NCBI RefSeq assembly: GCF_024502345.1
Contig: NZ_JALDNN010000001.1
DNA: 64,000 nucleotides
DNA from: Escherichia coli
GTDB lineage: Bacteria; Pseudomonadota; Gammaproteobacteria; Enterobacterales; Enterobacteriaceae
Direction: 5' to 3' (one strand)
Part shown: piece by piece, positions 13,477-29,464 of the stretch
Position numbering within the stretch: position 1 is the stretch's first letter
Layout: each line of letters opens with the position of its first letter
The notes under the pieces: generated by a model
Database searches by the model: none
Seen by the model: only the letters and a program-made list of their open reading frames with translations
What the model was told of the DNA's origin: nothing
Made by a program: the position numbers and the translations under genes

Positions 13477-13558
13477 AACCCTCTCCTTAGCTTATACAGA
13501 TATCATTGAGTGACCGGTGTTGAGAAATCCGGTGGTTTAGGGGGATAGAGCAACAATC

Positions 13559-13574
13559 GCACCACTCTTGCCAG
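13559..13574 (-). promoter_or_regulatory. candidate sigma-54 (-24/-12) promoter upstream of ygfK
   Basis: minus-strand sequence CTGGCAAGAGTGGTGC: GG and GC dinucleotides at the canonical 10-nt spacing; about 85 bp upstream of the ygfK start. Confidence 0.3.
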
Positions 13575-13797
13575 GTTTGGCGGGAAATATAAAAAAATGT
13601 GAGGCGGCTCGAAACTTAAGGGCTTTTTGTGAATGAACTCACAGGTGCTAAATGAGAATTAAAATCACTCCTGAAAATTATTATTGCCAGCCCATTTATC
13701 ACTTTTTCTCTTTTCTCAAAATCAGTGATTCCTTATCATTATGATAAAGAGTGCCGGAAGGATTAAATATTTGAACGCAATCGTTTAACTACGTTTT

Positions 13798-14376
13798 CTA
13801 AATTTCTGTATACCTTTTCTTCGCTGTAATAAAGTCGTCCGGAGTATCAATATCTAAAATTATTTCTGCATTTTCTATTTCGACGGAATAATGATCTCCC
13901 ATAAGGAGTGCCTGACGCATATTGGTGACATTGGGTCGCTGGATTGCCTGCATCAGGCATGGTTTTGACACTAAAATCGGATGGCCGGGGATGCCATTAT
14001 GGAGTGGCAGTATTGCGCCATCATTTCGTAACGACCAGATTTTTCTAAAAATATCGATGGTGAGGGTTGGCATGTCACCGTGGGTGAGAAAACAATGTTC
14101 TGTTTGCACCGCGGGTACTGCGGCCTTTACTGATGTTAGTAAACCCTGCGCATAATCTGGGTTGTGGATAATAGTGATATTGCTCTGGTTCGCATAACGT
14201 TCGTGCAGTTCATTACCACGATAGCCGGTGACTAAAATAATTCGGCTACAAAACTGCAACGCATTTTTGATACTTGTATCAAGAATTGTTCCCTGTTGCC
14301 AGGGTAACATCATTTTCCATTGCCCCATTCTTGATGATAATCCGGCAGCGGTAATTATACAGTCGATGGCTGACAT
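13798..14376 (-). CDS. mocA: molybdenum cofactor cytidylyltransferase
   Basis: 192 aa ORF; MobA-like nucleotidyltransferase N-terminus (IITAAGLSSRMG). Confidence 0.8.
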   Translation of the reverse strand: MSAIDCIITAAGLSSRMGQWKMMLPWQQGTILDTSIKNALQFCSRIILVTGYRGNELHERYANQSNITIIHNPDYAQGLLTSVKAAVPAVQTEHCFLTHGDMPTLTIDIFRKIWSLRNDGAILPLHNGIPGHPILVSKPCLMQAIQRPNVTNMRQALLMGDHYSVEIENAEIILDIDTPDDFITAKKRYTEI

Positions 14377-14478
14377 AGTGGTTCCATTATTTATAGGGGC
14401 TAATAACGCCTGATAATTGCGTTACTTCCTGATGCATTAAGTTGGGGATAATTTATCCCAGAGAGGTCATAAAGACTC

Positions 14479-15249
14479 GTGAAAAGTATAGTTGACCCAT
14501 CGGCATTAGTCATTGATTTAGGCGCGCAGAAACGTCCCACTGTGATTTCTGTTGTTGGTGCTGGGGGGAAAACCAGCTTGCTTTTTTGGCTGGCAGAACT
14601 GCTCCAGGCTAGCGGCAGGCGTGTGTTAATCACGACGACAACACATATGTTTATGCCAACGTCTCACTGGCCCGTGGTTTTCTGTCGTGATCCCGCCATG
14701 CTTCCTCATGCGTCTCTTACATCCCCCATTTCATTTTGTTTTCACAGCTGGAAAGCGAACCAGGGAAAAGTGCAGGGATTTACGCCAGAAGCGATTGATG
14801 CACTGGTGCAACGACCAGAGTGTGACGTAATTCTCATTGAAGCAGATGGCTCGCGTGGAATGCCGTTAAAAGCGCCTGATGAGCACGAACCTTGCATACC
14901 CAAAAGCAGTTGCTGCGTGATTGCTGTGATGGGAGGACATACTTTGGGCGCGAAAGTGAGCACAGAAAATGTCCATCGCTGGTCGCAGTTTGCTGATATT
15001 ACCGTGTTAACACCTGATGCAACCTTGCAACTGAGCGATCTCGTTGCGCTGGTTCGCCACCCTCAGGGGGCGTTTAAAAACGTACCGCAAGGTTGTCGGC
15101 GAGTCTGGTTCATTAACCGTTTTTCTCAATGTGAGAATGCGATTGCACAAAGCGAGCTCCTTCAACCGCTGCAACAACACGACGTAGAGGCAATCTGGCT
15201 GGGCGATATACAAGAACATCCTGCAATCGCGCGCAGATTTGTGAATTAG
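14479..15249 (+). CDS. yqeC: uncharacterized protein with P-loop-like N-terminus, possible selenium/molybdenum cofactor accessory factor
   Basis: 256 aa ORF with Walker-A-like motif (VVGAGGKTSL); divergent from mocA. Confidence 0.7.
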   Translation: MKSIVDPSALVIDLGAQKRPTVISVVGAGGKTSLLFWLAELLQASGRRVLITTTTHMFMPTSHWPVVFCRDPAMLPHASLTSPISFCFHSWKANQGKVQGFTPEAIDALVQRPECDVILIEADGSRGMPLKAPDEHEPCIPKSSCCVIAVMGGHTLGAKVSTENVHRWSQFADITVLTPDATLQLSDLVALVRHPQGAFKNVPQGCRRVWFINRFSQCENAIAQSELLQPLQQHDVEAIWLGDIQEHPAIARRFVN

Positions 15250-15296
15250 CGGCCCGGGTATTCCGGGTTACTGAAAGGATATCCATTGAGGTTGGT

Positions 15297-16922
15297 ATGA
15301 ATATTTTCACAGAGGCTGCAAAACTCGAAGAGCAAAATTGTCCGTTTGCGATGGCGCAAATTGTTGATAGCCGAGGCTCGACTCCCCGCCATTCTGCACA
15401 AATGTTAGTGCGCGCCGATGGTTCTATCGTCGGTACAATTGGTGGCGGAATGGTTGAGCGGAAGGTGATTGAAGAGTCACTTCAGGCATTGCAGGAACGT
15501 AAGCCGCGATTATTCCATGGACGTATGGCTCGTAACGGTGCGGATGCTGTCGGGTCAGATTGTGGAGGTGCAATGTCAGTATTTATCAGCGTCCATGGTA
15601 TGCGTCCACGTCTGGTGTTGATTGGCGCGGGGCATGTCAACCGGGCGATAGCCCAGAGTGCGGCGCTATTAGGATTTGATATTGCCGTTGCCGATATTTA
15701 TCGCGAAAGCCTCAATCCTGAACTATTCCCTCCATCAACCACGCTTCTCCATGCTGAGTCGTTTGGTGCAGCAGTGGAAGCACTGGATATTCGCCCTGAT
15801 AATTTTGTCCTGATTGCCACGAATAATCAGGATCGTGAAGCCCTCGACAAACTCATTGAACAGCCCATTGCATGGTTGGGGTTGCTGGCAAGTCGCCGCA
15901 AGGTTCAGCTTTTCCTGCGTCAATTGCGTGAGAAAGGCGTGGCTGAAGAACATATTGCCCGTTTACATGCGCCCGTTGGTTACAACATAGGTGCGGAAAC
16001 GCCGCAGGAGATCGCCATCAGCGTGCTGGCAGAAATATTACAGGTGAAAAATAACGCGCCGGGTGGGCTGATGATGAAACCTTCTCATCCTTCCGGACAC
16101 CAGCTGGTGGTGATTCGCGGTGCGGGAGATATCGCCAGTGGTGTGGCGCTACGTCTGTATCATGCGGGTTTTAAAGTGATCATGCTGGAAGTGGAAAAAC
16201 CGACAGTGATTCGTTGTACCGTGGCGTTTGCCCAGGCCGTGTTCGATGGCGAAATGACGGTCGAAGGCGTCACTGCTCGCCTGGCAACCAGCTCTGCGGA
16301 AGCGATGAAACTTACCGAACGCGGATTCATCCCTGTGATGGTAGATCCCGCCTGTTCATTGCTTGATGAACTGAAACCGCTTTGCGTGGTGGACGCTATT
16401 CTGGCGAAACAGAATTTGGGAACGCGGGCAGATATGGCACCAGTAACAATCGCGCTTGGGCCGGGCTTTACTGCAGGGAAGGATTGTCATGCGGTAATTG
16501 AAACAAATCGCGGGCACTGGCTCGGTCAGGTGATTTACTCTGGTTGTGCGCAGGAGAATACCGGTGTTCCTGGCAATATTATGGGGCATACCACCCGACG
16601 GGTGATCCGTGCTCCTGCTGCAGGCATTATGCGATCCAACGTGAAATTAGGCGATCTGGTGAAAGAGGGCGATGTGATTGCCTGGATTGGTGAGCATGAA
16701 ATTAAAGCACCGTTGACGGGGATGGTGCGTGGCTTGTTGAACGACGGCCTGGCAGTGGTCGGTGGTTTTAAAATTGGTGATATCGATCCTCGTGGTGAAA
16801 CGGCTGATTTCACCAGTGTTTCTGATAAAGCCCGGGCGATTGGCGGCGGCGTACTTGAGGCGTTAATGATGTTGATGCATCAGGGCGTGAAAGCGACAAA
16901 AGAAGTGCTGGAAGTGGCTTAA
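15297..16922 (+). CDS. yqeB: XdhC/CoxI-family molybdenum hydroxylase accessory protein
   Basis: 541 aa ORF; XdhC-CoxI family-like N-terminus and Rossmann-like region. Confidence 0.8.
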   Translation: MNIFTEAAKLEEQNCPFAMAQIVDSRGSTPRHSAQMLVRADGSIVGTIGGGMVERKVIEESLQALQERKPRLFHGRMARNGADAVGSDCGGAMSVFISVHGMRPRLVLIGAGHVNRAIAQSAALLGFDIAVADIYRESLNPELFPPSTTLLHAESFGAAVEALDIRPDNFVLIATNNQDREALDKLIEQPIAWLGLLASRRKVQLFLRQLREKGVAEEHIARLHAPVGYNIGAETPQEIAISVLAEILQVKNNAPGGLMMKPSHPSGHQLVVIRGAGDIASGVALRLYHAGFKVIMLEVEKPTVIRCTVAFAQAVFDGEMTVEGVTARLATSSAEAMKLTERGFIPVMVDPACSLLDELKPLCVVDAILAKQNLGTRADMAPVTIALGPGFTAGKDCHAVIETNRGHWLGQVIYSGCAQENTGVPGNIMGHTTRRVIRAPAAGIMRSNVKLGDLVKEGDVIAWIGEHEIKAPLTGMVRGLLNDGLAVVGGFKIGDIDPRGETADFTSVSDKARAIGGGVLEALMMLMHQGVKATKEVLEVA

Positions 16923-16962
16923 ATGAAAATGGCCGGATGGTATTACCCCCCCGGCCTTAAAA

Positions 16963-17895
16963 TTACTGACAAATCACCGTTCCGGTTTTGCCTTCAATCC
17001 CTTCTTTCGCTTTGCTCAATACGGTAATCAGTGCTTCACGACCTGCGCGAGAGCGAGCAAACGAGGCGGCAGCTTCCACTTTAGGCAGCATAGAACCTTT
17101 CGCAAAATGACCTTCTTCGATAAAGCGTTCAGCATCACTTAATGACAGGCGATCGAGCCACTGTTCATTCTCTTTACCGAAGTTAATGGCCACTTTTTCT
17201 ACCGCAGTCAGAATGATCAGCATATCGGCATCAATCATTTCTGCTAAACGGGCGCTGGCCCAGTCTTTATCGATAACCGCGCTGGCACCACGCAGATGGT
17301 TACCTTCACGAATAACAGGAATACCACCACCGCCAACGGTGATCACCACCTGGCCTGCATCTACCAGAGCTTTAACCGTTTCTTTTTCAATAATATCAAC
17401 CGGTTTTGGCGAGGCAACAACACGGCGATAGCCGCGACCAGCATCTTCTTTCAGAGTGTAACCCTGTTTTGTCAGTTGCTCTGCTTCTTGCTCGGTAAAG
17501 AACGAACCGATCGGCTTGGTCGGGTTGAGGAATGCCGGATCGTTAGCGTCGACTTCGACCTGAGTAACCAGCGTTGCTACCGGTTTATTAATGCCCCGAG
17601 AAAGCAGTTCTTCTCTTAAGGCGTTTTGTAGATCGTAACCAATATAACCCTGGCTTAAGGCAACGCAGACAGACATCGGCAGCATTGGCGAGTGCGCTTC
17701 AGTTTTTGCAGCAGCTTCAAAGGCCTGGTTAATCATGCCCACCTGCGGCCCGTTACCATGAGTGACGATAACTTCATGTCCTTGGGCAATTAAATCAACA
17801 ATTGCCTGAGAAGTAATTTTTACCGCTTTCATTTGTCCGGCCAGGTCATCGCCCAGCGCATTCCCGCCCAGGGCGAGAACAATTTTCTTACTCAT
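16963..17895 (-). CDS. yqeA: carbamate kinase-like protein
   Basis: 310 aa ORF with the amino-acid kinase fold N-terminus (KIVLALGGNALG). Confidence 0.8.
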   Translation of the reverse strand: MSKKIVLALGGNALGDDLAGQMKAVKITSQAIVDLIAQGHEVIVTHGNGPQVGMINQAFEAAAKTEAHSPMLPMSVCVALSQGYIGYDLQNALREELLSRGINKPVATLVTQVEVDANDPAFLNPTKPIGSFFTEQEAEQLTKQGYTLKEDAGRGYRRVVASPKPVDIIEKETVKALVDAGQVVITVGGGGIPVIREGNHLRGASAVIDKDWASARLAEMIDADMLIILTAVEKVAINFGKENEQWLDRLSLSDAERFIEEGHFAKGSMLPKVEAAASFARSRAGREALITVLSKAKEGIEGKTGTVICQ

Positions 17896-17942
17896 TTTTC
17901 CTCACTCATCATTCTTGATTGTGTATAGATCCCTGACAGTGG

Positions 17943-19328
17943 TTAGAGCACGGGAGGGACAAACGGTTTGCGTCGCAGGAAACGACCTCGCCCGGCTTTG
18001 CCTGTAAAGGTGCCGTCACAGAAAATCGTTTCACCACGGGATAAGGTTCTGACAATCGCGCCCTGACAGGTAAAACCCTCCCATGGCGAGTAGTCGGCGT
18101 TGTCGTGGAGATGGCGATGCTGAATTTGTTGGCTCTGACGTGGGTCGATAATCACCACGTCGCCATCGGAACCGGGCGCTAATAATCCTTTTTGCGGCCA
18201 CAGGCCAAACAGCCTGGCGGGCATTGCGCTGGTTAATTCAACAAAGCGTTCCGGTGTTATACGTCCCGTCATCACGCCACTGGAAAACAGTAACTGCATG
18301 CGGTTTTCCACACCGGGTAAGCCATTTGGGCAGCGACTGAAATCGCCTTTAGAAATTTGCAGGCGTTGAGCCATCGAGAAGGTGCAGTGATCGGTCGCCA
18401 CCACGTCAATCGCACCATCGCTGATGCCACACCACAGTTTGTCCTGCTCGCGTACGTTACGCAGCGGTGGGCTAAGAATGAACTTCATGCCATCTTCTGT
18501 ATCGTAACTGCGTTCGTCCAACAGGAGATATTGTGGGCAGGTTTCAACCCAGACTGGCTGGTGATTCGCACGGGCAAGACGCAGATAATCCAGACCTAAG
18601 CCGTTAGACAGGTGCACGATATAGAGCGGGGCGTTACCGGCAATTTGTGCCAGGTTAATCATGCGGGCGATGGCTTCCGCTTCGCATTCCAGAGGGCGAC
18701 TCAAGGCATGATAGCGCGGCGCGGTTAACCCTGCGGCGATAAATTCCGCCCGCTTGCTGGCGATAGCCGCATCATTTTCCGGGTGCACGGTGGTCAGCGC
18801 GCCGGATTCATGCAGACGGCGTAATGCCTGCAAAACCTCGTCATCGTTGAGTTTGTATTGATAGGTTAAATAGAGTTTAAAACTGCTCAGTCCTTCCTCG
18901 ACCATCATCGGGATTTCGTCGAGGATTGCGTGATTAATGTGCTGGATCACACCGTGAAAGCTGTAATCGATGACCGCTTTATGGGCGGCATAACCACGAT
19001 AAACCTCCAGTTGATGGCGTAACCGACAGCCGTTTGGGCCAAATCCCATATGGTCAATAATGGTTGTTGTACCGCCACACGCAGCTGCGCGGGTACCGGT
19101 AAAAAAATCATCACAACTGCGCGCGATGCCGACATCAATATTGAAATGCGTATGGACATCCACGCCGCCAGGGAAAACGTAACAGCCAGTGGCATCAATT
19201 TCTTCATACGGGAGCTGCGGCGAAATATTGTTGCCCAACTGGCGAACAATCCCGCTTTCAATCAGCAAATCCTGTTTGGCTTGTCCATCTGCGTTAACGA
19301 CAGTGCCGTTTTTGATCAATACGCGCAT
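17943..19328 (-). CDS. hyuA: D-phenylhydantoinase / dihydropyrimidinase-like cyclic amidohydrolase
   Basis: ORF 17943..19340 trimmed to MRVLIKNGTVVNADG...; 461 aa; metal-binding HxH (VDVHTHF). Confidence 0.85.
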   Translation of the reverse strand: MRVLIKNGTVVNADGQAKQDLLIESGIVRQLGNNISPQLPYEEIDATGCYVFPGGVDVHTHFNIDVGIARSCDDFFTGTRAAACGGTTTIIDHMGFGPNGCRLRHQLEVYRGYAAHKAVIDYSFHGVIQHINHAILDEIPMMVEEGLSSFKLYLTYQYKLNDDEVLQALRRLHESGALTTVHPENDAAIASKRAEFIAAGLTAPRYHALSRPLECEAEAIARMINLAQIAGNAPLYIVHLSNGLGLDYLRLARANHQPVWVETCPQYLLLDERSYDTEDGMKFILSPPLRNVREQDKLWCGISDGAIDVVATDHCTFSMAQRLQISKGDFSRCPNGLPGVENRMQLLFSSGVMTGRITPERFVELTSAMPARLFGLWPQKGLLAPGSDGDVVIIDPRQSQQIQHRHLHDNADYSPWEGFTCQGAIVRTLSRGETIFCDGTFTGKAGRGRFLRRKPFVPPVL

Positions 19329-19380
19329 AGCAAACTCCAAAAACCCTCCGGCGAACCGGAGGGGAATAAGTGAAGAGTAA

Positions 19381-20592
19381 TTACTCTGTTGCCAGCCAGC
19401 TTAACGGGATTGCAGCGTACATCGCGGCACAGGTCACCAGGTGAGATTTCCAGGTTTTTTCGTTAGGTGCATGCGCTTCAGGTTCTTTACCCGGGCCAAA
19501 GCCGATCACCGGAATGCCGTGACGGCCCATGATAGATACGCCGTTAGTTGAGAAGGTCCACTTATCAACAACCGGCGCTTTGCCAAACAGCCCTTCGTAG
19601 GCATTCACCAGTGCTTTAACGGTGAAGTGATCTTCTTCCACTTTCCAGGTCGGGAAGTAGCATTCGGTTGGGTAAACCAGGCCAGTCCAGGACGGACGGT
19701 CGTAGTTGTACATAGAAACAACCGCGTTAGCTTTCTGTACTGCAGGCAGGGCGCGGATTTCGTCCAGCGCGCCTTCCCAGGTTTCGCCCCAGGTCAGACG
19801 GCGGTCAATAGAGACGGCGCAGCTATCTGCTACAGCGCAACGGCTTGGGGATGTGAAGAAGATTTCAGAAACGGTGAGGGTGCCTTTGCCGAGGAATTCG
19901 TCATAACCCAGACGTTGGGAGAGTTCTTGTAATTCGCCAAGAATCGGACCCATTTTGAAAATGGCGTTGTCACCGCGTTCTGGCGCAGAACCGTGGCAGC
20001 TAACACCCTGAACATCAATACGAATTTCCATACGACCGCGCTGACCACGGTATACCTGGCAGTCGGTTGGTTCGGTACTGACCACAAATTCCGGGCGAAT
20101 GCCGGATTGTTCAATAATGTACTGCCAGCACAGACCGTCGCAGTCTTCTTCCTGCACAGTACCGGTAACCAGCAGGGTATATTCATCTTCCAGACCGAGG
20201 TCTTTAATGATTTTACCGGCATAAACCATAGATGCCATGCCGCCTTCCTGGTCGGAAGTACCGCGACCACCGATCAGCTCATCAGTTTCCATGCCTTCGT
20301 ACGGATCGAAGTCCCAGTTTTTGATGTTGCCAATGCCGACGGTATCGATATGAGCGTCCATTGCCACCAGACGCGGGCCGTGGCCGATATAACCGAGAAC
20401 GTTACCCATCGGGTCGATTTCAACTTTATCGAAGCCGACTTTTTCCATCTCTTCTTTAATACGATGTACTACGCGTTTCTCGTCGCAGCTTTCACTGGGA
20501 ATAGCAACCATGTCGCGCAGGAAGCGAGTCATATCCGCCTGGTAATCTTTTGCTTTTTCAAGAATCAGTTTGAATGGAATATTCTTAGCCAT
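19381..20592 (-). CDS. ygeY: M20-family peptidase / amidohydrolase
   Basis: 403 aa ORF; ArgE/DapE-like metallopeptidase motifs. Confidence 0.8.
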
Positions 20593-20649
20593 TATTTTTC
20601 TCCAGATTTTTTACTCCCCGTTTTGCAGGGAGCAGTTCCAATAGGGTGA

Positions 20650-21846
20650 TTAAGGTGCTACAGCGTGTTTGCCTTCCCAGACAACTTCGCGGTAGTGCTT
20701 CACGTCGGTGTCGCCTTCAGTGCTGATAACCAGCACTACGGCATCTTTGTTCAGCGCCAGTTTTTCCATCAGGCTTTGACGTTGCGGGTGATAATGAACC
20801 GCCGCGAGAACGCCCAAACCGACAGCGCCGGATTCACCGGAGATGATGCGCGGGTCGTTGCCGTACGGATTACCCAGCACGCGCATACCTAATGCGGCAA
20901 CGCTGTCCTGGCAGGAGATGAATTGGGTGGCGCAGTTACGTAGGATTTCCCAGCCCAGCGGGTTAGGTTCGCCACAGGCCAGGCCCGCCATGATGGTGGC
21001 CATATCACCGCCAACGTTGACGATGTCGCCTTTGACGCCGGAGCGATAAATACAGTCAGCTTTGTCAGGTTCAACAATAATGCTATGCAGATTTTGCGGG
21101 CTGTAGACGTCGACCAGATAACCCAGCACACCACCGGCCATTGCACCGACACCAGCTTGCAGCAGAACGTGCGTCGGGGTTACGCCCATTTCACGCATTT
21201 GCTCGACGGCTTCATCTGCCAGGGTTGCGTAGCCTTGCATGATCCAGGATGGGATTTTGGTGTAACCTTCCCATGCCGTGTCCTGTACTACTTCCCAGCC
21301 GTGCTGCTGCGCGTGTTGCATGGTCAGGCGAACGGTATCGTCATAGTTCATATCCGTGACGATGCACTCGGCACCGAGGTTCAGAATGGCGTCAACGCGT
21401 TCCTGAGCAGAACCTTTCGGCATGTAAATCACCGCATTCTGTCCGAGTTGCTGCGCTGCCCACGCCACACCGCGCCCGTGGTTGCCGTCGGTGGTGGTGG
21501 CGAAAGTCATTTTTTCGCCGATGGCATTTTTCAGGTGCTCAAATGACAGCGTTTCGATATCAAGATGATATTTTTCACACAATAATTGAGCGATAGCGTA
21601 CGCACCGCCGAGCATTTTGAAGGCGTTCAGACCGAATCGTTTTGATTCGTCTTTGACAAGAATTTTCTTCACACCAAAAAGGTTTGCGAGATCGTCCAGC
21701 GCACAAAGCGGTGTTGGGCGATAACCAGCTATTTTCTGGTGGAACTGGCGCGCCAGTTTGGCCTGGCTTTGCGAAAAGAGCGGTGATGTTTCGCCGTTGA
21801 AAAATTTGTTATCGGCGATATCAATCTTCAATGAGAAAACGGACAT
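20650..21846 (-). CDS. dpaL: 2,3-diaminopropionate ammonia-lyase (PLP-dependent)
   Basis: 398 aa ORF; PLP fold-type II features; synonym ygeX. Confidence 0.85.
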   Translation of the reverse strand: MSVFSLKIDIADNKFFNGETSPLFSQSQAKLARQFHQKIAGYRPTPLCALDDLANLFGVKKILVKDESKRFGLNAFKMLGGAYAIAQLLCEKYHLDIETLSFEHLKNAIGEKMTFATTTDGNHGRGVAWAAQQLGQNAVIYMPKGSAQERVDAILNLGAECIVTDMNYDDTVRLTMQHAQQHGWEVVQDTAWEGYTKIPSWIMQGYATLADEAVEQMREMGVTPTHVLLQAGVGAMAGGVLGYLVDVYSPQNLHSIIVEPDKADCIYRSGVKGDIVNVGGDMATIMAGLACGEPNPLGWEILRNCATQFISCQDSVAALGMRVLGNPYGNDPRIISGESGAVGLGVLAAVHYHPQRQSLMEKLALNKDAVVLVISTEGDTDVKHYREVVWEGKHAVAP

Positions 21847-21903
21847 ATCCTATCCTTTTGGCCTCTGGAAATAGAGGGCCGACCAGCTGATCGGCCCGAG
21901 GGG

Positions 21904-23094
21904 TTATTTCACGCGTTCTTGCGCTTCTTTCAGCAGTTGCTCGAGCAGTGCACCTGGTTTGGCGTATTTACGGGACAGGATCATCGCGGCGATGATATAA
22001 GGCTTCCAGCTGGCTTCTTTGTAGGTAGCGATACGGTATTTTTCGAATACGCCTTCAGTCACTTCACCTTCTTTGCAGGATACGCCGCTGATATCAGCTG
22101 GCAGGCAGTGCATGTACAGGGCTTCGCCATCACGGGTCAGTTCCATCATCTCTTCAGTACAATGCCAGTCTTTGTGTTGCGCGTTCTGTGCCAGACACTG
22201 TTTTTCCAGTGCTTTTAAGCCTTCGTGGTCGTTCGCACGCAGCAATTCAGTACGCTCTTCCATCACTTTGTAAGGTGCCCATGACTTCGGATAAACGATG
22301 TCTGCATCTTTGAACGCTTCTTCCATGCTGGTGACCTGACGGAAGCTACCGCCAGATGCTTTAGCATTGTTTTTCGCCACTTCAACCACATCCGGGATCA
22401 GGTCGTAGCCTTCCGGATGGGCCAGGGTGACATCCATACCGAAGCGAGTCATCAGACCGATGATGCCTTGTGGTACAGAGAGCGGTTTGCCATAGCTTGG
22501 AGAGTAGGCCCAGGTCATGGCGATTTTTTTACCTTTCAGGTTTTCCAGTGAACCAAAGTGTTCACGTAACCACGCGAGGTCAGCCATTGACTGAGTCGGG
22601 TGGTCAATATCGCATTGCAGGTTCACTAAAGCCGGACGCTGTGGCAGTACACCCTGCTTGTAACCGTCATCAAGTGCAGCGCCAACTTCACGCATATAGG
22701 CGTTGCCTGCGCCCAGATACATATCGTCGCGAATACCAATAGCGTCGGCGCAGAAGGAGATCATATTGGCGGTTTCACGCACGGTTTCGCCGTGAGCGAT
22801 TTGTGATTTGCCTTCGTCGAGATCTTGTTGTGCAAGGCCGAGCAGGTTAAGCGCGGAAGCATAAGAGAAGCGGGTACGGGTGGAGTTGTCGCGGAATACG
22901 GAAATACCTAATCCACTATTAAAGACTTTGGTTGAGATGTTTTCAGCACGCAGTGCTTTTAATGCTGCGGCAACGTCCAGTACTTGTTTCAGTTCATCTG
23001 GCGTCTGTTCCCACGTTAACAAAAAATCTTTCTCGTGAAGGTGAGAGGTCAGCGAATTGATATCCTTAATCAGCTCATTAACAGTTTTCATCAT
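21904..23094 (-). CDS. ygeW: transcarbamylase-family protein (ornithine/aspartate carbamoyltransferase-like)
   Basis: 396 aa ORF; carbamoyl-phosphate-binding STRTR motif. Confidence 0.8.
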   Translation of the reverse strand: MMKTVNELIKDINSLTSHLHEKDFLLTWEQTPDELKQVLDVAAALKALRAENISTKVFNSGLGISVFRDNSTRTRFSYASALNLLGLAQQDLDEGKSQIAHGETVRETANMISFCADAIGIRDDMYLGAGNAYMREVGAALDDGYKQGVLPQRPALVNLQCDIDHPTQSMADLAWLREHFGSLENLKGKKIAMTWAYSPSYGKPLSVPQGIIGLMTRFGMDVTLAHPEGYDLIPDVVEVAKNNAKASGGSFRQVTSMEEAFKDADIVYPKSWAPYKVMEERTELLRANDHEGLKALEKQCLAQNAQHKDWHCTEEMMELTRDGEALYMHCLPADISGVSCKEGEVTEGVFEKYRIATYKEASWKPYIIAAMILSRKYAKPGALLEQLLKEAQERVK

Positions 23095-23184
23095 AAAGTC
23101 CCGGTAGTGGAATGACAGGCAAAGTGGTTTATTTCACTGTGACTTGCCAAAGTGATTGGTGTTTTCACAGCTATACCTGGGACT

Positions 23185-23200
23185 AACAATAAGTGTGCCA
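23185..23200 (-). promoter_or_regulatory. weak candidate sigma-54 promoter upstream of ygeW
   Basis: minus-strand sequence TGGCACACTTATTGTT: perfect -24 TGGCAC, but the -12 element is TTGT rather than TTGC; about 100 bp upstream of the ygeW start. Confidence 0.2.
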
Positions 23201-23569
23201 GAATTATCCGCGCGGCTGCAAAAGACTAATTTGACGGATAATGTGTGGGGTTGATCACAAATTGATGCCAGCTTCTGGTTGTTTGTAAAATACGAAAACG
23301 TTTGGCTTTTTTTATCGCGTTATTTATTTGCTGCTAAGTATCAGAAATAAGATAAAGGGGCAGGCTATCTCTCTTCAGTTTGATAAACTCACCGCCGTAA
23401 TTCTCATATTGATATAGAAATGTGATATCTCTTCCATAATTTCATTAGAAAATGATAAAAATCTTATGTTTTTATCAAAGCCAATTTCGCCTGAGTTAAT
23501 ATCATCATGATCTGTGAACCATCAACGTCTTCAATGATCGACTTTTAAGTAAGTCTGGAAGGTAAAGCT

Positions 23570-25348
23570 ATGGAGCTTGCTACTACGCAGTCAGTATTGA
23601 TGCAAATTCAACCGACAATTCAGCGTTTTGCCAGAATGCTTGCCAGCGTTTTGCAGCTTGAGGTTGAGATCGTTGATGAAAACTTGTGTCGCGTCGCCGG
23701 AACGGGCGCGTATGGGAAGTTTCTTGGTCGCCAGTTGAGCGGCAACTCACGCCTGCTCCGCCACGTCCTGGAAACGAAAACTGAAAAAGTTGTGACACAG
23801 TCTCGCTTCGATCCCCTTTGCGAAGGTTGCGATAGTAAAGAAAATTGCCGCGAAAAAGCATTTCTGGGTACGCCTGTCATTTTACAGGATCGTTGTGTTG
23901 GGGTGATAAGTTTGATTGCCGTTACCCACGAGCAACAAGAGCATATCAGTGATAATTTACGCGAATTTTCTGATTATGTTCGCCATATATCCACCATTTT
24001 TGTTTCGAAACTTCTGGAGGATCAGGGGCCAGGAGATAACATCAGTAAAATATTCGCGACCATGATCGATAATATGGATCAGGGCGTATTAGTTGTTGAT
24101 GATGAAAGTCGGGTTCAGTTTGTTAATCAGACTGCCTTAAAAACACTTGGTGTTGTACAAAATAATATTATTGGGAAACCTATCCGTTTCAGACCATTAA
24201 CATTTGAGAGTAATTTTACTCATGGACATATGCAGCATATTGTTTCGTGGGACGATAAAAGTGAATTAATCATTGGTCAATTGCATAACATTCAGGGCCG
24301 ACAATTATTTTTAATGGCATTTCACCAATCGCATACCAGTTTTTCTGTAGCAAATGCACCTGATGAACCACATATTGAACAATTGGTTGGCGAGTGCCGT
24401 GTTATGCGGCAATTAAAACGACTCATTAGCCGTATTGCACCCAGCCCATCCAGCGTTATGGTGGTTGGTGAAAGTGGCACGGGTAAAGAAGTCGTCGCCC
24501 GAGCAATCCATAAGTTGAGCGGAAGACGGAATAAACCCTTTATTGCTATCAACTGTGCCGCGATTCCGGAGCAGCTTCTGGAAAGCGAACTGTTCGGTTA
24601 TGTTAAAGGCGCATTTACTGGCGCTTCTGCCAACGGTAAAACAGGGTTGATTCAGGCGGCGAATACGGGCACGCTGTTTCTCGATGAAATAGGTGATATG
24701 CCATTAATGTTGCAGGCTAAATTACTGCGCGCTATTGAGGCGCGTGAAATTCTGCCGATTGGTGCCAGTAGCCCAATACAAGTCGACATTCGCATCATTT
24801 CTGCAACTAATCAGAATTTGGCCCAGTTCATTGCCGAAGGTAAATTCCGCGAAGATCTCTTCTACCGACTTAATGTTATCCCGATAACTCTGCCACCGCT
24901 GCGTGAACGTCAGGAAGATATTGAACTATTGGTGCATTACTTTTTACATCTGCATACCCGTCGTCTGGGATCGGTTTATCCTGGCATTGCTCCCGATGTC
25001 GTCGAAATATTGCGTAAGCATCGTTGGCCCGGAAACCTGCGCGAGTTAAGCAATTTGATGGAATATCTGGTTAACGTAGTTCCTTCAGGTGAAGTTATCG
25101 ACAGCACGCTATTGCCGCCAAATCTGCTGAATAATGGCACAACGGAGCAAAGTGATGTAACAGAGGTCAGTGAGGCGCACCTGTCACTCGATGATGCGGG
25201 CGGCACGGCGCTGGAGGAGATGGAAAAGCAAATGATCCGCGAGGCGCTTTCACGTCATAACAGCAAGAAGCAAGTTGCTGATGAACTGGGCATCGGCATT
25301 GCTACGCTCTATCGCAAGATTAAGAAATATGAGTTGTTAAACACATAA
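23570..25348 (+). CDS. ygeV: sigma-54-dependent transcriptional activator (bacterial enhancer-binding protein)
   Basis: 592 aa ORF; AAA+ sigma-54 interaction domain with Walker A (GESGTGKE) and GAFTGA motif; C-terminal Fis-type HTH. Confidence 0.85.
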   Translation: MELATTQSVLMQIQPTIQRFARMLASVLQLEVEIVDENLCRVAGTGAYGKFLGRQLSGNSRLLRHVLETKTEKVVTQSRFDPLCEGCDSKENCREKAFLGTPVILQDRCVGVISLIAVTHEQQEHISDNLREFSDYVRHISTIFVSKLLEDQGPGDNISKIFATMIDNMDQGVLVVDDESRVQFVNQTALKTLGVVQNNIIGKPIRFRPLTFESNFTHGHMQHIVSWDDKSELIIGQLHNIQGRQLFLMAFHQSHTSFSVANAPDEPHIEQLVGECRVMRQLKRLISRIAPSPSSVMVVGESGTGKEVVARAIHKLSGRRNKPFIAINCAAIPEQLLESELFGYVKGAFTGASANGKTGLIQAANTGTLFLDEIGDMPLMLQAKLLRAIEAREILPIGASSPIQVDIRIISATNQNLAQFIAEGKFREDLFYRLNVIPITLPPLRERQEDIELLVHYFLHLHTRRLGSVYPGIAPDVVEILRKHRWPGNLRELSNLMEYLVNVVPSGEVIDSTLLPPNLLNNGTTEQSDVTEVSEAHLSLDDAGGTALEEMEKQMIREALSRHNSKKQVADELGIGIATLYRKIKKYELLNT

Positions 25349-29105: not shown

Positions 29106-29122
29106 GGCAAGATTTACGCCAG
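29106..29122 (-). promoter_or_regulatory. candidate sigma-54 (-24/-12) promoter upstream of xdhABC
   Basis: minus-strand sequence CTGGCGTAAATCTTGCC: matches YTGGCACG-N4-TTGCW at the GG and TTGC core positions; about 95 bp upstream of the xdhA start. Confidence 0.35.
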
Positions 29123-29464
29123 AAACGACGATAAGCGTTAGGGGAGGTAGGAAGTGTGATGACGTTAAAAAAACACAGATATGATACGAAACAGGACTCT
29201 GAATAGGGGCAGTGATACGTATCAATATGAGTGGCGATAAAATCAATGTGATAAATTGGGATTATTACGCATCAGGATGGGAAATAGGGTAAAAAGTCAG
29301 GAACTTCGATACCTCTACAGCGAATATTTTGCTGATGATACTTCCCTTTGCCAAATGAAATTAACCTCTTTCTCTATTACCACGTTTTTCCAGAAGCAAG
29401 AGATTGGGTATCAAGAGGCTGGCTGCTATGATAAGGCGTCTTGTTTTTTAAGCGAGGAAAGATT

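Follow-up and report, generated by a model that had tools for sequence, protein, structure and literature searches.

The DNA between ygeW and ygeV, in the 64,000-nucleotide stretch of Escherichia coli DNA analysed here (the window), is an ordinary and incompletely mapped divergent sigma-54 control region of the gut uric-acid-degradation genes. We propose, as the explanation that probably fits it best, that YgeV binds TTATCA-N3-TGATAA sites, that the DNA would loop from there to the sigma-54 promoter of ygeW, and that the promoters carrying such sites would form one regulon. This conserved palindrome, and not the repeats to which an initial annotation had pointed, likely provides the YgeV binding sites, as judged from sequence comparison. 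The anaerobic urate-degrading genes of E. coli are under the control of this region. They have now been connected with uric-acid levels in the host and are targets of probiotic engineering, strain CBT2.0 having been obtained by exchanging part of the ygeV-ygeW spacer. The enzymes of the urate pathway have been worked out recently.

The ygeW-ygeV spacer and its sigma-54 promoter

The intergenic DNA (23095-23569) is E. coli chromosome with 37% G+C and was matched in 5187 of 5426 complete E. coli genomes. All four features described by the initial annotation, including a sigma-54 motif and two inverted repeats, are present where it had placed them, and its gene identities are correct. The start of ygeW in RefSeq (23091) is one codon later than had been assumed, therefore the spacer spans 23092-23569. 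The gene heads the string ygeW-dpaL-ygeY-hyuA-arcC, probably driven by the sigma-54 promoter (Table 1). An Rfam search of 22900-23800 gave no match, the open reading frames of the spacer are short ones only (20-32 codons) without support as genes, and no conserved RNA structure was found in the ygeW 5' leader (four weak pairs, -0.7 kcal/mol). Scans for sigma-70 promoters (2 promoter-like sites vs 1.6 expected) and for terminators (1 terminator-like site vs 0.7 expected) were both at chance.

Table 1. Positions of genes, promoters and candidate elements, numbered along the window.
Feature	Position	Strand	Basis or details
ygeW, knotted carbamoyltransferase	21904..23091	-	RefSeq annotation of identical genome; Pfam OTCace_N, OTCace
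ygeV (isrR), sigma-54 enhancer-binding protein	23570..25348	+	Pfam, motif positions
Sigma-54 promoter of ygeW	23184..23201	-	-24 TGGCAC (GG 23199/23198), -12 TTGT (G 23187, T 23186)
CRP-like site 1, TGTGG-GGTTGA-TCACA	23244..23259		9/10 core positions of TGTGA-N6-TCACA
Sigma-70-like match TTGATG-18-TAAAAT	23262-23291	+	directly precedes PurR-box-like palindrome
PurR-box-like palindrome ACGAAAACGTTTGGCT	23292..23307		13/16 positions of ACGCAAACGTTTGCGT
Candidate YgeV site 0, TCTTCAGTTTGATAA	23372..23386		10/12; right half perfect, left half retains CA only
Candidate YgeV site 1, TTCTCATATTGATAT, putative main upstream activator site	23401..23415		10/12 match
GATAT...ATATC palindrome GATATAGAAATGTGATATC	23411..23429		spans site 1 right half and TGTGAT block
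Conserved block AAATGTGATATCTCTTCCATAA	23418..23439		14/22 CRP consensus positions, 8/10 core
Perfect 9-bp inverted repeat TGATAAAAATCTTATGTTTTTATCA, 7-nt loop	23453..23477		sequence
Candidate YgeV site 2, ATATCATCATGATCT	23499..23513		9/12; TA-TATCAT conserved (alignment)
ygfK sigma-54 promoter	13550-13564	-	reference for ygfK site distance
Perfect palindrome TTATCATTATGATAA upstream of ygfK	13733..13747		177.5 bp from GG of ygfK sigma-54 promoter
xdhA sigma-54 promoter	29107-29121	-	reference for xdhA site distances
Two sites upstream of xdhA	29219-29233 and 29240-29254		106.5 and 127.5 bp from xdhA GG

The motif facing ygeW reads TGGCACACTTATTGTT on the minus strand (23200..23185), in agreement with the initial annotation, and is a functional binding site. 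Strand, distance to ygeW and all 17 bases agree with OS30 (CTGGCACACTTATTGTT), a ChIP-seq sigma-54 site 80 nt before ygeW (Bonocora et al. 2015, PMC4591121), and the motif lies within an RpoN holoenzyme gSELEX peak at 3,004,270, in the ygeV/ygeW spacer (Shimada et al. 2021, PMC8743547). These published data show that sigma-54 RNA polymerase binds the ygeW promoter, which was already known before the present analysis; both studies mapped sigma-54 only and give neither activator sites nor comparative data. Transcription is predicted to start near 23174, some 83 nt ahead of the ygeW ATG. The -24 GG and the ten-base spacing are present, with T at 23186 where the sigma-54 consensus has C, so that the -12 element is GT instead of GC (TGGCACACTTATTGT). 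TGGCAC-N2-TTATTGTTA is invariant in an alignment of 12 enterobacterial genera. The motif had been called weak, which fits its low ChIP signal (score 3). Its non-canonical -12 TTGT, however, does not vary among the 12 genera and thus seems selected rather than decayed. In the window, TGGCAC-N5-TTGC with at most two mismatches is not enriched (102 observed vs 85 +/- 9); the reality of the motif rests on the published binding data and on conservation, not on the pattern match.

TTATCA-N3-TGATAA sites and the YgeV protein

The 12-genus alignment of the spacer consists of sharp conserved islands, the other columns being unalignable. Also, within E. coli, the 134 bp of the named elements contain 2 variable positions and the other 262 bp of the spacer 24 (p=0.002). 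Leaving the sigma-54 promoter aside, the repeats of the spacer could be functionless chance products of A+T-rich DNA, in line with its G+C content, with short inverted repeats near expectation and with the borderline probability of the 9-bp repeat (see below). The conserved islands, the depletion of polymorphisms, the fixed distances to the promoter and a motif common to four spacers beyond every shuffle already contradict this idea, and we regard it as highly improbable.

Three candidate YgeV sites lie in the spacer, and their distances are given here from the site centre to the -24 GG of ygeW. Site 1, at 209.5 bp and 162 bp before the ygeV ATG, keeps a distance of 209.5-212.5 bp in 11 of the 12 genera (200.5 bp in Scandinavium), and its orthologues match TTATCA-N3-TGATAA at 11-12 of 12 positions in 7 genera. 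Site 0 is at 180.5 bp; its CA-N3-TGATAA is invariant in the 12 genera, a match of at least 9/12 is found at 171.5-183.5 bp in 9 genera, and it stands 29 bp from site 1 in 8 genera and 28 bp in Cedecea. Site 2 lies 64 bp before the ygeV ATG, inverted with respect to site 1, and a scoring site occurs 61-68 bp before this ATG in E. coli, Intestinirhabdus, Pluralibacter, Cedecea and Enterobacter sp. Bisph1. The initial annotation had expected repeats 80-150 bp from the promoter; the conserved sites are found instead 180-310 bp from the -24 element. As it had supposed, the ygeV-proximal half of the spacer does carry conserved candidate regulator sites, in a placement compatible with autoregulation. 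Two points weigh against the YgeV looping explanation here: 180-234 bp is the long end for activator sites, and the E. coli ygeW sites are imperfect (10/12, 10/12 and 9/12) matches to an A+T-rich motif inside an A+T-rich spacer.

The ygeW operon belongs to the YgeV iModulon, which consists of the operons of the ygeW, xdhA, ygfK and ygfT/uacT promoters; this membership and the YgeV requirement for urate use are indirect signs that ygeW transcription may depend on rpoN and the activator. In an unbiased k-mer comparison of these four sigma-54 spacers, TATCAATATGAG ranked first and was exact in three of them, and a 12-mer common to three spacers was reached in 0 of 1000 shuffles. The 15-mer of site 1 is found again between ygfT and uacT, and its 12-mer core recurs upstream of xdhA. 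A TTATCA-N3-TGATA site upstream of ygfK was found in 11 genera, 157.5 bp from the GG in 7 of them and 177.5 and 179.5 bp from it in E. coli and Citrobacter, the distance being unmeasurable in Atlantibacter and Intestinirhabdus. The two xdhA sites are invariant at TATCA-N-A-TGA and TCA-N3-TGATA in 4 genera, at 105.5-107.5 and 125.5-127.5 bp, and the rearranged xdh operon of Scandinavium is preceded by the same distance pair (106.5 and 126.5 bp). Site positions are thus fixed across genera though the intervening DNA is unalignable, and the core TCA-N3-TGA is kept in all 34 collected sites. E. coli sites with at least 10/12 matches number 5 in the 1.62 kb of the four spacers vs 41 in 250 kb of other E. 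coli DNA; in the other genera, sites with at least 11/12 number 21 in 0.30 Mb of orthologous loci vs 10 in 1.06 Mb of unrelated activator loci. For these genera, the YgeV orthologue search used the Enterobacter sp. Bisph1 protein as query, the E. coli query having given near-identical E. coli clusters only; a contig scan, dominated by matches to generic AAA+ peptide patterns, yielded one true orthologue, and the remaining loci served as negative control. The single ygfT/uacT site counts against the YgeV looping explanation, as it stands at non-integral helical turns from both promoters (16.6 and 11.3). No convincing sigma-54 promoter was found between the TTCTCAATGTGAGAA site at 15123 and yqeB.

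Pfam matches (Sigma54_activat, 8e-71, AAA_lid_14, HTH_8 and PAS_8) give YgeV an N-terminal region with a PAS domain, a GAFTGA-bearing AAA+ domain and an HTH of the Fis type. With Walker A GESGTGK at residue 300 and GAFTGA at residue 347, YgeV carries all the parts of a sigma-54 activator. Its C-terminal LGIGIATLYRKI is common to the clostridial homologues, and the HTH sequence LGIGIATLYRK is identical in YgeV and in the homologues of Clostridium and Sedimentibacter, whose loci hold 8 and 4 motif sites, respectively, adjoining sigma-54 promoters. In Clostridiales, sites for such a homologue, DioR, were predicted upstream of dpaL, ygeW-ygfK-ssnA-ygeY and xdhABC, for example ATTTATCATAATGATAAGG (PMC6615313 Table S3). 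YgeV is required for urate use according to Iwadate and Kato 2019, as reported in a citing paper.

The assignment of the sites to YgeV rests on sequence, and a search of the literature found no EMSA, footprint or ChIP of YgeV on any DNA. The sites could also be real and bound by another protein, either Fur, whose box GATAATGATAATCATTATC shares ATAATGATAA with them and is matched by the ygfK site CATAATGATAAGGAATCAC at 13 of 19 positions (counted by hand), or another purine/urate regulator. We rejected Fur despite the shared word: the three central bases vary freely while the halves are fixed, as in a palindrome for a dimer and not in an array of Fur hexamers. Furthermore, the sites always precede sigma-54 promoters by 100-235 bp, they are accompanied by YgeV/DioR homologues of the same HTH in Enterobacterales, Clostridium and Sedimentibacter, and no further regulator gene is conserved in these loci. 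Another binding protein is therefore quite unlikely.

Inverted repeats, CRP-like and PurR-like elements

Both repeats noticed initially exist as described, the 9-bp one with its 7-nt loop and the GATAT/ATATC palindrome. They could themselves be the YgeV operators: the arms of the 9-bp repeat are unchanged in four divergent E. coli strains and include TGATAA and TTATCA, the words of the half-sites. Of 1000 dinucleotide-preserving shuffles of the region, 5.1% contain a perfect inverted repeat of at least 9 bp with a loop of at most 20, which makes the 9-bp repeat borderline with respect to chance (P=0.051). Since inverted repeats with 5-bp arms are common (19 observed vs 13.4 +/- 4.2 in shuffles), GATAT/ATATC is not above chance by itself. 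Among the 12 genera, only E. coli, Citrobacter, Atlantibacter and Trabulsiella retain the 9-bp repeat as such; it is lost in the eight others, which retain YgeV, the promoter and sites 0 and 1. Its arrangement, TGATA-N15-TATCA, is absent from the xdhA, ygfK and ygfT/uacT sigma-54 spacers and is unlike the DioR motif. Of the repeat, only ATCAA of the right arm is near-invariant in the alignment (at least 90%). In the palindrome, the left arm GATAT becomes GATAA or GATAG in other genera and the invariant bases are TCA-N3-TGA-A and TGTGAT, a conservation that departs from palindrome symmetry; by this pattern, it is not a unit in its own right. The reading of the repeats as operators then appears improbable. 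The 9-bp repeat amounts to one TGATAA and one TTATCA half-site, each isolated and pointing away from the other, and we infer that the repeats are by-products of a half-site array near the ygeV start. As ATCAA at 23474-23478 is nearly invariant, FNR (TTGAT-N4-ATCAA) was also considered; it was rejected, the partner half matching only 2-3 of 5 positions by hand.

The left arm of the repeat, TGATAAAAA (23453-23461), may also be read as an extended -10 (TGnTAAAAA) toward ygeV. Under this reading the repeat would be part of a sigma-70 promoter of ygeV, with a class II CRP block AAATGTGAT...CA centred at 23428.5 and a start near 23468-23470; the right arm TTATCAA would lie just downstream, a place where YgeV, once bound, could act as a repressor. 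In its left half, the block (23418..23439) matches the CRP consensus AAATGTGAT at 9 of 9 positions, and its right half is weak; TGTGAT and CA do not vary, and the distance to the GG is 230-232 bp in 8 genera and 221 bp in Scandinavium. Block centre and inferred start are 39.5-41.5 bp apart, and TGnTAAA is 32 bp from TGTGA in the four genera that keep the repeat and 30 bp in Intestinirhabdus. In addition, ygeV is transcriptionally regulated, being indole-induced. Against it, the -10-like word is unrecognisable in Scandinavium, Pluralibacter, Cedecea and Serratia, and the element was absent from the output of the promoter scan. Moreover, TGTGATA also arises within genuine TTATCA-N3-TGATA sites if N3 ends in TG, hence the block, which otherwise reads as a second CRP-like site, may be a further YgeV half-site. 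We consider this promoter somewhat unlikely; it can coexist with YgeV binding and looping.

CRP recognises the consensus TGTGA-N6-TCACA. CRP-like site 1 is centred at 23251.5, 53 bp upstream of the -24 GG and close to -78 relative to the predicted start. All 12 genera keep TG-G...TCAC and a centre-to-GG distance of 53-54 bp, and the site is a candidate bending or catabolite-control element. The IHF consensus WATCAANNNNTTR at 8 or more of 9 specified positions had no match in the spacer. The PurR operator is a 16-bp palindrome with a central CG, ACGCAAACGTTTGCGT, and the PurR-box-like palindrome, 101 bp from the GG, is the sole such match in the 64-kb window; it stands at the same place only in E. 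coli, Citrobacter, Atlantibacter and Trabulsiella (4/12). Both elements are candidates by their match to a consensus and by conservation. ygeW is listed in a putative PurR cluster (PMC4576408), and PMC12507026 mentions a native Crp site in this spacer, replaced in strain CBT2.0, and reports that glucose represses urate degradation.

Proposed activation of ygeW and comparison with known systems

In the explanation we favour, YgeV dimers would bind sites 0 and 1, about 205 and 234 bp upstream of the ygeW start, where the active oligomer would assemble. A DNA loop would then bring this oligomer onto the promoter-bound sigma-54, and the promoter would be opened with ATP. Looping may be assisted by a protein that bends the DNA at the conserved CRP-like site, roughly 78 bp before the start; such assistance would also explain the repression of urate degradation by glucose. 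The same type of site would serve the xdhA, ygfK and ygfT/uacT promoters, which would make up a single YgeV regulon for breaking down purines and urate anaerobically. Bound at site 2 and at the half-sites of the 9-bp repeat, which lie over the ygeV start or shortly ahead of it, YgeV probably limits its own synthesis, as the geometry suggests. The IsrR paper reports that ygeV is induced by indole and tied to LEE expression, a link that the YgeV looping explanation leaves unexplained.

A broader and tentative reading, which we find possible yet doubtful, is that the whole urate/purine module (activator, motif and promoter geometry) moved between Firmicutes and Enterobacterales. It combines several propositions that are equally doubtful when taken jointly: in Enterobacterales the main sites would be strictly phased on the helix, some 10, 15 and 20 turns away from the -24 (105.5-107.5, 157.5 and 209.5-212.5 bp), CRP, at a fixed 53-54 bp from the -24 GG, would replace IHF as the loop-forming protein, and the invariant -12 TTGT would be a selected feature tuning the ygeW promoter. 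If true, catabolite control would act directly on the looping step of a sigma-54 promoter. The candidate YgeV, CRP and PurR sites at four promoters can be mutated, making the question of gene activation experimentally simple, and they show which bases an engineered promoter swap removes.

The closest known system is DioR (Nie et al. 2019, PMC6615313). Its motif ATTTATCAnnnTGATAAnn is the same as the enterobacterial YgeV-candidate motif, its target genes are those found here (dpaL, ygeW-ygfK-ssnA-ygeY, xdhABC and yqeB/yqeC), and the placement agrees too, one site or several preceding a sigma-54 promoter by 100-250 bp; DioR and YgeV are 35-39% identical over their full length and share the LGIGIATLYRK helix. 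The prediction was confined to Clostridiales and listed no sites in E. coli. As a lesson for annotation, a motif predicted for a clostridial activator can be carried over to E. coli without change. The enterobacterial spacer adds CRP-like sites and, in one clade, PurR-like ones, while the accessible part of PMC6615313 describes none for DioR targets. Enterobacterales also differ in the ygeW -12, TTGT instead of TTGC, and in a common variant half-site, TTCTCA.

Two divergent sigma-54 systems offer further parallels. In prpR-prpBCDE of E. coli and Salmonella, the activator gene is likewise divergent from its sigma-54 target operon, and activator sites and CRP catabolite control are found in the shared spacer, comparable to the ygeW spacer candidates. 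PrpR sites and an IHF requirement have been shown experimentally there, whereas the ygeW-side sites are predicted from sequence and no IHF consensus was found. In norR-norVW, binding of NorR to its motif GT-N7-AC has been demonstrated experimentally; the motif differs from that of ygeW/ygeV and the distances are shorter. Like the ygeW/ygeV spacer, this divergent spacer holds several short palindromic activator sites, and they serve both sigma-54 activation and negative autoregulation, as we propose for ygeV.

The ygeW promoter and its surroundings

The sigma-54 promoter of ygeW is already known. The motif described in the initial annotation lies where it was placed, and published ChIP-seq, gSELEX and invariance across 12 genera establish it as real. 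Bonocora et al. (PMC4591121) report the ChIP-seq site OS30 (CTGGCACACTTATTGTT), whose peak score is low (3), at 80 nt before ygeW, and sites neighbouring it serve xdhA, ygfK and ygfT. Also, the ygeV/ygeW spacer carries an RpoN holoenzyme gSELEX peak (Shimada et al., PMC8743547), and the YgeV iModulon comprises xdhABC, ygeWXY-hyuA, ygfK-ssnA-ygfM-xdhD, ygfT and uacT (Lamoureux et al., PMC10602906). In an alignment of the spacer from E. coli, Citrobacter, Atlantibacter, Trabulsiella, Kluyvera, Raoultella, Intestinirhabdus, Scandinavium, Pluralibacter, Cedecea, Serratia and Enterobacter sp. Bisph1, TGGCAC-N2-TTATTGTTA is invariant, as is the T in place of the consensus C at -12. A loose TGGCAC-N5-TTGC match alone is uninformative within the window.

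The window is E. coli chromosome, and the 1.1 kb around the spacer is found at 95-100% identity in 5187 of 5426 complete E. coli genomes. Since the RefSeq start of ygeW is at 23091, the spacer spans 23092-23569 (37% G+C). YgeV combines a PAS segment and a Fis-type HTH with a Sigma54_activat AAA+ domain that carries the GAFTGA and Walker A motifs. A paper that renames the gene IsrR and demonstrates its induction by indole contains no binding data, and our literature search found no report of YgeV binding sites in E. coli.

Two side observations concern ygeW. In this strain the ygeW and ygfK sigma-54 motifs (13565-23184) stand 181 bp closer together than the K-12 coordinates of Bonocora et al. 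imply, with exact agreement for the xdhA distance, which suggests that an indel lies in the interval from ygfK to ygeW. In the ygeW leader, about 25 nt directly before the start codon (GCCnGTCATTCACnACCAGGA) are near-invariant in the 12 genera, exceeding the needs of a ribosome-binding site; no conserved RNA structure was predicted there.

Features of the ygeW/ygeV region and related motif copies
Feature	Position	Strand or orientation	Remark
Motif-variant palindrome TTCTCAATGTGAGAA	15123-15137		yqeC 3' end
Motif copy ATATCAAGATGATAT	21557-21571		within dpaL (ygeX) coding sequence
ygeW	start 23091	minus	knotted carbamoyltransferase (annotation)
ygeW leader	23092-23125	minus	
Sigma-54 motif	23185-23200	facing ygeW	
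CRP-like site 1	23244-23259		TGTGG-N6-TCACA
PurR-like box ACGAAAACGTTTGGCT	23292-23307		
Site 0	23372-23386		half-conserved copy of shared word
Site 1	23401-23415		copy of shared word
GATAT/ATATC palindrome	23411-23429		
CRP-like block 2, AAATGTGATATCTCTTCCATAA	23418-23439		
9-bp inverted repeat	23453-23477		
Site 2	23499-23513	inverted relative to site 1	second copy of shared word
ygeV		plus	sigma-54 interaction domain protein (annotation)
6-bp in-frame deletion near ygeV 5' end	23655-23660		E. coli O45:H2 strain FWSEC0003, window as reference
CTGGCACTCCACGAGCA, GG-N10-GC	16292-16308 of L002	facing uacT	sequence with the ygfT/uacT spacer, just outside the window

A shared palindrome proposed for YgeV

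We propose that the TTATCA-N3-TGATAA sites of E. coli and 11 other genera would belong to YgeV, a new assignment in which we infer all binding steps from comparative evidence. The motif emerged from a search for words common, on either strand, to four E. coli spacers with published ChIP sites, three of them inside the window and the fourth being ygfT/uacT. At each length from 11 to 16 the top shared word was centred on TATCAATATGAG; the ygeW/ygeV, xdhA and ygfT/uacT spacers contain it exactly, and upstream of ygfK it takes the form of a perfect palindrome, TTATCATTATGATAA. A 12-mer common to three spacers occurred in none of 1000 shuffled sets, where the longest was 11, seen once. At a threshold of 10 or more matching positions out of 12, the four spacers (1.62 kb) contain 5 sites and unrelated chromosomal DNA of E. 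coli (250 kb) contains 41. At 11 or more, orthologous loci (0.30 Mb) contain 21, almost all of them within ygeW/ygeV or ygfK spacers, and loci around unrelated sigma-54 activators (1.06 Mb) contain 10.

Across the 12 genera the spacer is mostly unalignable, with sharp conserved islands: the promoter; TG-G-N7-TCAC in CRP-like site 1; CA-N3-TGATAA at site 0; TT-TCA-N3-TGA-A followed by TGTGAT at site 1 and its flank; CATAaTT; ATCAA, the right arm of the 9-bp repeat; and TA-TATCAT, the left half of site 2. Site 1 is centred 209.5-212.5 bp from the -24 GG of ygeW in 11 genera (200.5 bp in Scandinavium), not at the 80-150 bp that the initial annotation gave as usual for such activators. Site 0 is 29 bp nearer the promoter than site 1 in the 9 scoring genera, except in Cedecea (28 bp). 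In 11 genera a TTATCA-N3-TGATA palindrome stands upstream of ygfK. Its distance from the GG, taken in nine of them, is precisely 157.5 bp in 7, 177.5 bp in E. coli and 179.5 bp in Citrobacter; of the other two, Atlantibacter and Intestinirhabdus, one has no promoter match and the other too little sequence. Four genera have a pair of sites at xdhA, one 105.5-107.5 bp and the other 125.5-127.5 bp from the GG, and Scandinavium, with a rearranged xdh operon after ygeV, keeps a sigma-54 promoter with a pair at 106.5 and 126.5 bp. TCA-N3-TGA is constant in all 34 collected sites, while the three central bases vary. Among four divergent E. coli strains, the named elements (134 bp) contain 2 variable positions and the remaining 262 bp of spacer contain 24 (Fisher p=0.002).

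All four items noted earlier in the spacer exist where they were placed, and the idea of regulator sites in the ygeV-proximal half, possibly for autoregulation, is reasonable, as conserved candidates are there; the units and distances then named are unsupported. No inverted repeat in the region is longer than the perfect 9-bp one, although one at least this long arises in 5.1% of 1000 dinucleotide-preserving shuffles. The number of 5-bp inverted repeats, of which GATAT/ATATC is one, is near expectation (19 vs 13.4 +/- 4.2). TGATA/TATCA pentamers in the spacer number 7 vs 1.7 expected. Two of these 7 form the arms of the 9-bp repeat, where they face outward 15 bp apart, an arrangement not seen at the other promoters, and the GATAT/ATATC palindrome overlaps both the right half of site 1 and the TGTGAT block. 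Both repeats are most plausibly by-products of an array of half-sites.

Other copies were observed outside the spacer. That in dpaL (10/12, strict core) may be a chance match or an internal site. The yqeC variant lies 174 bp before the yqeB ATG, and no convincing sigma-54 promoter was found between the two. In Cedecea, Serratia and Enterobacter sp. Bisph1 the similar CTCTCAAACTGAGAA precedes the yqeB/xdhC-like gene by ~70-105 bp. The uacT-facing CTGGCACTCCACGAGCA, ~70 nt before the uacT ATG and with the shared TTCTCATATTGATAT site 118.5 bp upstream, is missing among the published ChIP-seq table entries examined; uacT belongs to the YgeV iModulon.

CRP-like and PurR-like elements

CRP-like site 1 matches 9 of 10 CRP core positions, and its centre lies 53-54 bp from the GG in 12/12 genera. 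A 2025 paper (PMC12507026) places a native Crp site in this spacer and reports glucose repression of urate degradation; CRP is therefore proposed as the bending factor, which would bend the DNA for the long site-to-promoter loop. The IHF consensus was absent from the spacer. Block 2 is conserved, and its left half matches CRP perfectly. One possibility is that it serves as a class II CRP site for transcription of ygeV, in which case the left arm of the 9-bp repeat, TGATAAAAA, would be the extended -10 of the ygeV promoter; equally, it could be another YgeV half-site.

The PurR-like box agrees with 13 of 16 PurR operator positions, is the sole such match in 64 kb, and keeps its position in four genera only, those with xdhABC next to ygeV as well. 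A sigma-70-like match, TTGATG-18-TAAAAT, precedes it, and ygeW was included in a putative PurR cluster in an earlier computational study (PMC4576408). A candidate purine-repressor site in front of a purine-catabolism activator gene is counter-intuitive.

Relation to DioR and other YgeV homologues

A Citrobacter werkmanii locus encodes a YgeV paralogue, 38% identical and with a near-identical HTH (LGISIATLYRKI), and therefore a second family branch exists in Enterobacteriaceae, possibly with a related binding site.

Homologues from Clostridium and Sedimentibacter share 36-39% identity with YgeV, and the helix LGIGIATLYRK ends all three proteins, whereas unrelated activators differ there. The clostridial homologue DioR has as predicted activator targets dpaL-pyrC-argE, ygeW-ygfK-ssnA-ygeY, yqeB/yqeC and xdhABC, and its predicted sites (Table S3) include ATTTATCAAAGTGATAAGT, ATTTATCATAATGATAAGG, TATTATCATTTTGATAATA and similar sequences (Nie et al. 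2019, PMC6615313), the same motif as the E. coli TTATCA-N3-TGATAA sites. We found 8 and 4 candidate sites in the Clostridium and Sedimentibacter loci, respectively; three perfect ones stand ahead of TGGCACAAGTTTTGCT, and one precedes TGGCACACTTATTGCT, a near match to the E. coli ygeW promoter.
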